IMG/VR virus record: IMGVR_UViG_2529292919_000018
Origin: a virus
Lineage: Duplodnaviria; Heunggongvirae; Uroviricota; Caudoviricetes
Reading direction: 5' to 3' (one strand)
Length of the DNA stretch: 44,108 nucleotides
This document shows, in pieces, positions 14,332-14,655 of this stretch; position 1 is the stretch's first letter, and the number at the start of each line of letters is the position of its first letter. A program made the translations under genes and the position numbers. Below the pieces are notes generated by a model that saw nothing but the letters and a program-made list of their open reading frames with translations, had not been told where the DNA came from and searched no databases.

Positions 14332-14402
14332 AGTGCAATCTCCCCTTACTTATCCGGAGGCAATTGCAATATCTCTGTGAACTTACACAGGAGAAGCAGG
14401 CT

Positions 14403-14558
14403 ATGAAGCAGCAAAAGGCGATGTTAATCGCCCTGATCGTCATCTGTTTAACCGTCATAGTGACGACACTGGTAACGAGGAAAGACCTCTGCGAGGTACG
14501 AATCCGAACCGGCCAGACGGAGGCCGCTGTCTTCACAGCTTACGAACCTGAGGAGTAA
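14403..14558 (+). CDS. hokD: Hok/Gef-family membrane toxin (HokD/RelF-like)
   Basis: 51 aa MKQQKAMLIALIVICLTVIVTTLVTRKDLCEVRIRTGQTEAAVFTAYEPEE: single TM helix plus the conserved LVTRKDLCEVRIR / AVFTAYE Hok signature; AGGAGAAG RBS. Confidence 0.85.
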   Translation: MKQQKAMLIALIVICLTVIVTTLVTRKDLCEVRIRTGQTEAAVFTAYEPEE

Positions 14559-14626
14559 GAGACCCGGCGAGGGAGAAATCCCTCGCCACCTCTGATGTGG
14601 CAGGCATCCTCAACGCACCCGCACTT

Positions 14627-14655
14627 AACCCGCTTCGGCGGGTTTTTGTTTTTAT
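14627..14655 (+). terminator. Rho-independent terminator after hok
   Basis: AACCCGC-TTCG-GCGGGTT stem-loop followed by TTTTTGTTTTTATTTT. Confidence 0.55.

Follow-up and report, generated by a model that had tools for sequence, protein, structure and literature searches.

A hokD-type toxin gene parted from its sok half by an IS481-family insertion sequence in a Qin-like lambdoid prophage

Introduction

The hok/sok loci of E. coli are type I toxin-antitoxin systems, and the hokW-sokW locus of the Sakai prophage Sp5 has been found experimentally to be a working pair of toxin and RNA antitoxin (PMC8621323). Here we describe a related locus in a stretch of virus DNA of 44,108 nucleotides (nt) from the Caudoviricetes (IMG/VR record IMGVR_UViG_2529292919_000018), the whole of which is called the window below. 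As in the hokW-sokW/MokW loci, a Hok of 51 amino acids (aa) is encoded in a lambdoid prophage, accompanied by a leader and by a sok on the opposite strand, which in the window is a prediction. The unit in the window differs in that a 1.1-kb insertion sequence (IS) splits it between the sok promoter and the ribosome binding site (RBS) of hok.

Insertion sequences beside hok genes have a longer history. In K-12, hokA, hokC and hokE lie next to IS150 or IS186 and are presumed inactive, as Pedersen and Gerdes are said to have reported in 1999. The window resembles these loci in having an IS beside an intact hok open reading frame (ORF), where the insertion is thought to inactivate the locus and the toxin frame is undamaged. 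It differs from them in that its IS belongs to another family and occupies one fixed nucleotide position across many hok loci; we know of no site specificity reported for IS150 or IS186 at hok. A review has noted 'sequence insertions' in hok loci (PMC4147584), and a recent census of Hok homologues mentions neither the IS of the window nor a common insertion point (bioRxiv 10.1101/2025.08.07.668861).

The element itself can be compared with IS481 of Bordetella pertussis, with which it shares a DDE (rve) transposase, an N-terminal helix-turn-helix, short inverted repeats TGT...ACA and a short target duplication. The target duplication of IS481 is the 6-bp sequence NCTAGN. The element of the window, in contrast, duplicates 5 bp of variable sequence that lie just upstream of a -35 hexamer, and its ORF has no internal stop. 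Elements of the IS481 family are often juxtaposed to flanking genes (PMC13548323), and the same is seen here. A literature search, for which most subscription journals were out of reach, turned up no account of this IS or of insertion directed at promoters, and none of IS481-type elements within hok; it is uncertain whether promoter homing has gone without earlier description. An IS next to an inactive hok locus is known, and the interest here lies in an apparent homing to sok and other sigma70 promoters and in the coincidence of that site with the relBE-hokD junction of K-12, both of which we discuss below.

A hokD-type locus in two halves

In the hok gene of the window we very probably see the toxin-encoding half of a type I locus of the hokW/sokW type (hokD family), which lies in a Qin-like lambdoid prophage and was split by an IS481-family IS drawn to the sok promoter. 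Confidence is high for the structural part of this account, the splitting of the locus. An IS of 1,095 bp inserted in the Shine-Dalgarno sequence of hok and duplicated GGAGA. The fragment to its left (13099-13294) retains the hok promoter, a structured leader, the start of mok and all of the predicted sok gene, promoter included, and the fragment to its right (14390-14654) retains the RBS, the hok ORF, a 3' pairing element and the terminator. The parts, with their strand and the basis of each assignment, are as follows.

13099-13127, + strand: promoter-like sequence of hok, TTGGCG-17-TAGAAT (promoter scan)
13134-13294, + strand: 5' leader of the hok mRNA, cut off from the ORF; includes a tac-like 5' segment (13134-13160) and the mok start (13246) (RF01794)
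13180-13289, - strand: predicted sok antitoxin gene (sequence prediction, analogy with plasmid R1)
13246-13425, + strand: truncated mok frame, a 59-aa fusion ORF of 16 native codons followed by IS sequence (ORF list)
13290-13294, no strand: left copy of the target duplication, GGAGA (comparison with the empty site and contigs)
13295-14389, - strand (transposase): IS481-family insertion sequence, 1,095 bp (empty site, contigs, Pfam/NCBIfam)
14390-14394, + strand: right copy of the target duplication, GGAGA, which is the Shine-Dalgarno sequence of hok (comparison with the empty site and contigs)
14403-14558, + strand: hok (hokD/hokW-type) toxin ORF, 51 aa (ORF list, Pfam, RefSeq label)
14590-14621, + strand: fbi-like segment of the hok 3' untranslated region (UTR), which pairs with the mRNA 5' end at 13134-13160 (duplex energy)
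14627-14654, + strand: intrinsic terminator of the hok transcript (terminator scan)

The toxin frame on the right is intact from its ATG at 14403 to its stop at 14558, and its product is MKQQKAMLIALIVICLTVIVTTLVTRKDLCEVRIRTGQTEAAVFTAYEPEE. Pfam HOK_GEF (PF01848) matches it with an E-value of 6.8e-23 (80.4 bits, cut-off 22); the NCBIfam models of the Hok family also match, all under their cut-offs. The GGAGA at 14390-14394 precedes the ATG by a gap of 8 nt, and the terminator consists of a 7-bp stem (14627-14644) and a T-run. The original prediction, made from the same sequence, had described a 51-aa Hok/Gef frame with a good RBS and an intrinsic terminator behind it, and these features stand. 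It had also placed the frame about 70 bp from the coding end of the IS. The distance from the hok ATG to the minus-strand start codon of the transposase, which ends at 14331, is 71 nt; the true end of the IS, at 14389, is only 13 nt from the ATG.

The left half was identified by its leader. An Rfam scan of 12500-16000 gave a single strong match, RF01794 ('sok'), at 13134-13300 on the + strand (112 bits, E 6e-26, gathering score 59, model positions 1-157 of 157). The consensus of this model opens like the 5' end of a hok mRNA and closes at the hok AUG, and RF01794 therefore describes a hok leader. Where no IS intervenes, as in the relative L002, the match continues straight into hok; in the window it does not adjoin the ORF but sits 1.1 kb away from it. 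The start predicted for the hok promoter, at about 13134, is the first position of the leader model. The leader at 13134-13160 and the hok 3' UTR at 14590-14621 form a duplex of -32.6 kcal/mol, for which shuffled sequences gave -21.7 +/- 3.2 kcal/mol and none of 500 was as strong. Through this pairing of the leader's 5' end with the 3' UTR, in the manner of tac- and fbi-type elements, the two halves are tied together as a single former transcription unit. The IS (13295-14389) now lies between them, and promoter, leader and mok are no longer contiguous with hok, which makes the locus a disrupted hok/sok family member.

The antitoxin is predicted on the opposite strand. Its putative promoter has a -35 of TTGCCT (13289-13284), a 17-nt spacer, a -10 of TAACCT (13266-13261) and a start near 13254. 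The predicted Sok RNA of about 75 nt (approximately 13180-13254, - strand) folds into a long hairpin that is followed by a U-rich tail, and in form and place it is as expected for a Sok by analogy with plasmid R1. In plasmid R1 the mok frame differs from the hok frame. When the empty site of the window is rebuilt, the mok ATG is in frame with hok and gives a 70-aa product of the 'MokW' type, an N-terminally extended Hok.

The uninterrupted form is common. The rebuilt empty site (leader, single GGAGA, hok) was found in 2,947 of 5,426 complete E. coli genomes when a match over at least 80% of the query length was asked for, with an identity of 99.8% in the best matches. It is also present at 98% identity, under the annotation MokW, in the lambdoid phages mEp460_ev081 and HannyBb. 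Genomes with the IS-split form number 55, with an intact hok ORF among those listed, and the relBE-hokD arrangement of K-12 is found in 1,162 of the 5,426. In FORC064, PtuA and PtuB genes identical to those upstream of the leader in the window are joined directly to leader and hokD, with neither IS nor relBE.

The original prediction had read the gene as an orphan hokD without its relBE partners, possibly uncontrolled or driven by read-out from the IS. Parts of that picture hold. The hokD of K-12 does sit immediately after relBE, as our comparison with K-12 also found; no relBE-like genes are present here, as a tblastn search of the whole 44-kb window with K-12 RelB and RelE returned no homologue; and an IS end 13 nt from the hok ATG, together with one weak outward promoter-like site at 14250-14279, speaks for read-out. 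The loss of native control also stands: the insertion has broken the continuity of hok with its promoter, its leader, the mok start and sok. The gene is, however, not an orphan, because its regulatory half (RF01794), with cognate leader, mok start and predicted sok, is intact 1.1 kb upstream, directly to the left of the IS. The failure to find a Sok-like promoter opposite 14403-14560 was correct for the same reason, the predicted sok lying upstream of the IS. There is also no sign of a loss of relBE partners, the IS-free relative FORC064 having the same upstream neighbours and no relBE. Finally, the transposase is transcribed away from hok, and the right end of the IS has no consensus outward promoter on the + strand, which argues against read-out; the weak site emerged only as a candidate in a relaxed scan. 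An orphan hokD that lost relBE and is now uncontrolled or driven from the IS is therefore extremely improbable as an account of this locus.

The insertion sequence and its ends

The ends of the IS and its 5-bp duplication were defined from the IS-free locus and from 147 independent contigs found by the exact pattern of the IS ends. Intact copies are 1,096 bp long. The termini are TGT...ACA, and an internal perfect inverted block of 11 bp, ATATTGCAATT, is found at 13311-13321 and 14362-14372. The target duplication is of 5 bp and is here the GGAGA of the hok Shine-Dalgarno sequence (13290-13294 and 14390-14394). Duplications of 5 bp are present at six or more sites. In E. coli genomes the IS was located at 1,697 places, and the highest copy number is that of NZ_CM130730.1 (E. 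coli IAL7255), with up to 38-39 copies. A transposase-seeded scan of GTDB genomes yielded only five short fragments. Degenerate copies of 93-94% identity, in the iroB-iss region of ColV plasmids and in the yegH/galF interval, were uninformative on targeting, having neither an adjacent hok nor a clean duplication.

The transposase frame runs on the minus strand from 14331 to 13244. Pfam matches on it are rve, rve_3, HTH_28 and LZ_Tnp_IS481; the best NCBIfam model is that of the IS481 family, NF033577, at 221.4 bits against a cut-off of 224, and PGAP labels the gene as an IS481 family transposase. Relative to the E. coli strain E2348/69, one T is gone from a run of seven at 14071 (A7 on the sense strand of the transposase), and the resulting frameshift breaks the 362-aa transposase into 93 and 270 aa. 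Possible causes are a genuine inactivating mutation, a slippery site and a sequencing error in the homopolymer.

No stop codon closes the transposase ORF within the IS. In the window this ORF terminates at 13244, 51 nt into the hok leader, and at hok sites in general it extends 16-47 aa past the end of the IS. At other sites an in-frame TGA at positions 2-4 of a -35 hexamer stops it two codons past the IS end. This hexamer is TTGAnn at seven sites and GTGACA at contig L180, the flanks concerned being those of L028, L013, L011, L055, L083, L116, L180 and L187.

Two other arrangements were seen. Contig L127 has two tandem copies of the IS with GGAGT between them. Another inserted element, which starts with TGTTAACGCC, cuts the start codon of hok after 'AT' in L054 and L074.

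Probable consequences for the expression of hok

The promoter of hok, mok and the Sok target now lie across the IS from the hok ORF; the duplication regenerates the RBS. mok now stops at 13425 within the IS, and the transposase gene is divergent from hok. No + strand promoter was found by a promoter scan between 13128 and 14450, a span that includes the right end of the IS. Judged from these sequence features, hok is probably now silent both transcriptionally and translationally, a view that we hold with moderate confidence; sok is probably still expressed, its -35 and -10 being untouched. A hybrid outward promoter at the right end of the IS was considered and rejected, as no sequence 16-18 nt from TTGCAA (14364-14369) would serve as its -10.

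Two observations weigh against silence. The relaxed scan gives the weak outward site already mentioned, CAGCCA-18-CATAAT, which could yield some transcription. There is also no intrinsic terminator on the + strand of the IS, or anywhere from 13134 to 14627, and read-through from the hok promoter is possible. In the latter case a long transcript would cross the IS antisense to the transposase, carry both the Sok target and hok, and leave the split locus partly functional or toxic. The RBS restored by the target duplication and the intact hok ORF in the listed split-form genomes would fit such a transcript. Against it, with mok ending at 13425, about 960 nt of untranslated antisense RNA would precede hok, so that the coupling to mok is lost and, by the rules of polarity, Rho-dependent termination is likely. 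Transcription through the IS would be convergent with that of the transposase, and the 5' and 3' pairing elements that govern the maturation of hok mRNA are now 1.1 kb farther apart. Continued expression of hok from its own promoter is accordingly unlikely.

A weak antisense promoter-like sequence, TTAACA-18-TAGCCT (14398-14427, - strand), overlies the first hok codons and is directed into the IS toward the transposase gene. It may contribute to expression of the transposase.

One insertion point in many hok loci

The IS takes the same position in other hok loci. On an F-like plasmid a copy of 99.9% identity separates a hok leader from a Hok gene whose product is only 38% identical to HokD; the duplication there is GGAGG. 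A Klebsiella-type plasmid carries a third hok locus, in which an IS of 75% identity takes that position. The Hok proteins at these other loci are only 38-45% identical to HokD, and the cognate leader is on the left side. In viral and metagenome contigs the right end of the IS lies 5-15 nt before the ATG of eight distinct Hok genes; hokD alleles are among them, as are hokA-like and hokE-like genes, one resembling SrnB/Flm and a hok like that of R1. In five types of hok locus, hokD included, both flanks are seen and the 5-bp duplication is clean. The insertions in hok loci are independent transposition events.

A promoter-like target

Outside hok the IS shows what its target may be. Left flanks read outward from the IS fall into 31 distinct clusters, 27 of which are non-hok. 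A recurrent pattern in them is the 5-bp duplication, TTGnnn, a spacer of 16-18 nt and TAnnnT, and proper duplications at non-hok sites are TACTC, TGCTC, GCGTG and GAGTG. The counts are as follows.

TTG exactly at offset 5: 13 of 27 non-hok clusters (background 0.018, P 4e-16)
xAnnnT after a 16-18 nt spacer: 12 of the 13 TTG clusters (P 1e-8)
TAnnnT at the right spacing: 9 of the 13 TTG clusters (P 3e-10)
TTG and xAnnnT combined, at offset 5: 12 of 27 non-hok clusters
The combined motif at 59 other offsets: 0-1 each
The combined motif in shuffled flanks (2,000): mean 0.14, maximum 2

The right flanks of the 27 non-hok clusters have no enrichment of the motif in either direction. The -35/-10 sequence pattern at the left flanks of the IS is very likely real, and the right flanks, negative as a control, make insertion specific in its orientation. 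That the A and T of TAnnnT are conserved suggests recognition of a functional promoter rather than of a motif specific to the transposase.

The association of the IS with hok might instead reflect a single ancient insertion that spread by homologous recombination or hitch-hiking, with the promoter-like flanks an artefact of composition. The sequence around the RBS is common to hok loci, and flanks do seem to be swapped by way of IS homology (the relBE-IS-hok form described below). Spread of one insertion is, however, hard to square with duplications that differ (GGAGG and GGAGA), with flanks that on both sides fit the local hok allele, with Hok proteins merely 38-45% identical to HokD, and with occupation of the same site by a copy of 75% identity. 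An artefact of composition would leave unexplained the non-hok sites with proper 5-bp duplications, the restriction of the -35/-10 pattern to offset 5 and its absence from the right flanks. We consider this explanation very unlikely, and return to target preference.

Several of the flanks encode small RNAs. In contig L141 (195-235) the IS lies 5 bp upstream of the rdlD promoter, the Rfam match to rdlD (87.6 bits) beginning 7 nt past the predicted -10. As rdlD RNA is the antitoxin in the type I system ldr/rdl, the IS has struck a second family of toxin-antitoxin loci in the same way. At the sites with TACTC and TGCTC the flank is the small RNA STnc100, in the same orientation as the predicted promoter, and several further flanks code for short RNAs with a hairpin and T-run at their ends. 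The idea that STnc100 is a lambdoid late-promoter transcript was dropped, as in L002 STnc100 adjoins AgvB, downstream of a DUF3927 gene, and is not near the antiterminator Q.

In hok loci the promoter targeted would be the one assigned to sok by analogy with R1, an antisense promoter placed after the mok start and before the hok RBS; the AGGCAA beside the RBS is complementary to its -35, TTGCCT. The left end of the IS would integrate 5 bp upstream of a -35 hexamer of the sigma70 type, with the transposase gene directed toward that promoter. Insertion at the sok promoter would necessarily deprive the toxin ORF of its promoter and of its coupling to mok, and would spare the antitoxin. Since the targeted promoter is, on this assignment, the sok promoter inside the toxin unit, hok loci would be hot spots at which the toxin loses its promoter and the antitoxin does not.

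Other observations count against this account. The predicted sok promoter matches the consensus at 7 of 12 positions, was missed by the promoter scanner and is assigned by analogy with R1. Among the 27 non-hok left flanks, 14 do not resemble promoters, and the insertion at the relBE-hok junction (L062 and L191) has a poor promoter match on its left. Because these flanks do not fit, targeting is to be seen as a strong but not an absolute preference, and the choice of target may also depend in part on the duplicated bases or the right flank.

A model that would join these observations has, in our estimate, about an even chance of being right. The element would be a promoter-homing IS that inserts in one orientation, with a duplication that stops exactly where the -35 hexamer of an active sigma70 promoter begins on its upstream side. 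It would favour strong, constitutive promoters of short RNAs (Sok, RdlD) and, these promoters being located within the unit of the toxin, would repeatedly disarm type I toxins while sparing their antitoxins, and its copies would serve as portable homology for swapping upstream modules. Involvement of bound RNA polymerase in the targeting is proposed with low to moderate confidence. The retroelement Ty3 integrates at start sites of RNA polymerase III (Pol III). It offers a functional analogy only, in its fixed distance from a promoter element, its defined orientation and its insertion in a 'safe haven'. Ty3 is, by contrast, a retrotransposon with another enzyme and other host machinery, and RNA polymerase as a tether for the IS of the window is only a possibility. 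If true, a bacterial transposon would here choose its targets in an unusual way, by their fixed register with sigma70 promoters downstream, and the model would supply a concrete mechanism for repeated, non-lethal inactivation of type I toxins.

The relBE-hokD junction of K-12

In the K-12 Qin prophage hokD (relF) follows relBE directly. The hokD ORF, 3' UTR and terminator of K-12 and of the window are nearly identical from AGGAGA on, and the downstream genes rem and ydfU/DUF968 are the same. Upstream of AGGAGA the two differ: K-12 has relE, a 57-nt spacer and no hok leader, whereas the window has the leader and the IS. No hok leader was found within the 8 kb of K-12 Qin that were examined. In the window the upstream genes are PtuA/PtuB and not relB/relE, and the sequence offers no sign that relBE ever belonged to the locus in this lineage. 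When K-12 relE-hokD is compared with the window and with the empty site, homology starts at AGGAGAAGCAGGCT-ATG, within one nucleotide of the junction at the right end of the IS.

The relB-relE module and its 57-nt spacer recur at 98-100% identity in three contexts, joined at the same GGAGA to different, unrelated hok genes. The first is the chromosomal hokD of K-12 (L012, 4276-4346). In the second, on plasmid pFF2-1h-mcr-9 (L190, 1638-1708), the module is joined to a different Hok without an IS. The third, on plasmid p3_LBHALD (L191, 3138-4309) and metagenome contig L062, has a third Hok with the IS in between; the IS of p3_LBHALD is of the 75% type and has GGAGA on either side. A truncated ydfV is annotated beside the relBE module in L191. 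In contig L091 the IS adjoins a remnant of the relE 3' end and the spacer, 10 nt short of the usual junction.

In the simplest reading, the IS, with copies at one and the same point in different hok loci, would provide portable homology for the exchange of upstream modules, and precise excision of the IS would then leave seamless relBE-hok fusions. This would offer an explanation for the long-known relBE-hokD arrangement of K-12, whose breakpoint is within one nucleotide of the IS junction, where relBE is fused to other hok genes as well and where the IS is once retained. The reading does not account for the origin of the first junction between relBE spacer and GGAGA, the spacer being a poor promoter match. 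The K-12 relE-hokD spacer is not recognisable as a remnant of the IS right end, as about 46% of positions match (17 of 37, not significant) and only the terminal ACA is shared.

Genomic setting

The region 13100-14700 is 99.9% identical to the enteropathogenic E. coli (EPEC) O127:H6 strain E2348/69, in which the two genes are annotated as 'IS481 family transposase' and 'hokD', the latter being the RefSeq name for the gene at 14403-14558. Dozens of E. coli genomes carry the plain label 'hokD' beside 'IS481 family transposase' and leave the antitoxin half unannotated, which affects counts of 'orphan' and 'intact' hok genes.

The surroundings are those of a Qin-like lambdoid prophage, with dicB, ydfABC, a cI/cro pair, the replication gene P, rem, DUF968/ydfU and rusA; a DUF1133 gene after rusA is taken as a Q-type antiterminator. 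The small RNA DicF (76.7 bits, 4534-4585, - strand) and three tRNA genes (19106-19352, + strand) fit such a prophage. Directly upstream of the hok leader, at 10994-12989 on the + strand, is an overlapping Septu defence pair, PtuA and PtuB. PADLOC matches PtuA with an E-value of 2e-165 and PtuB, an HNH nuclease, with 1e-83; RefSeq labels them only 'AAA family ATPase' and 'HNH endonuclease'.

Weak Rfam matches to isrK (25.7 bits), rsmX, ceN48 and sR19, which overlie the 3' UTR and terminator of hok or lie within the IS, are far under their gathering scores and were set aside as noise. Codon 47 of hok (14541-14543) is TAC within CUUACGAA, a context that we take to be the UACG motif of TadA. In hokD mRNA the corresponding tyrosine is reported to be recoded to cysteine by adenosine-to-inosine (A-to-I) editing (preprint, bioRxiv 10.1101/2025.08.07.668861).

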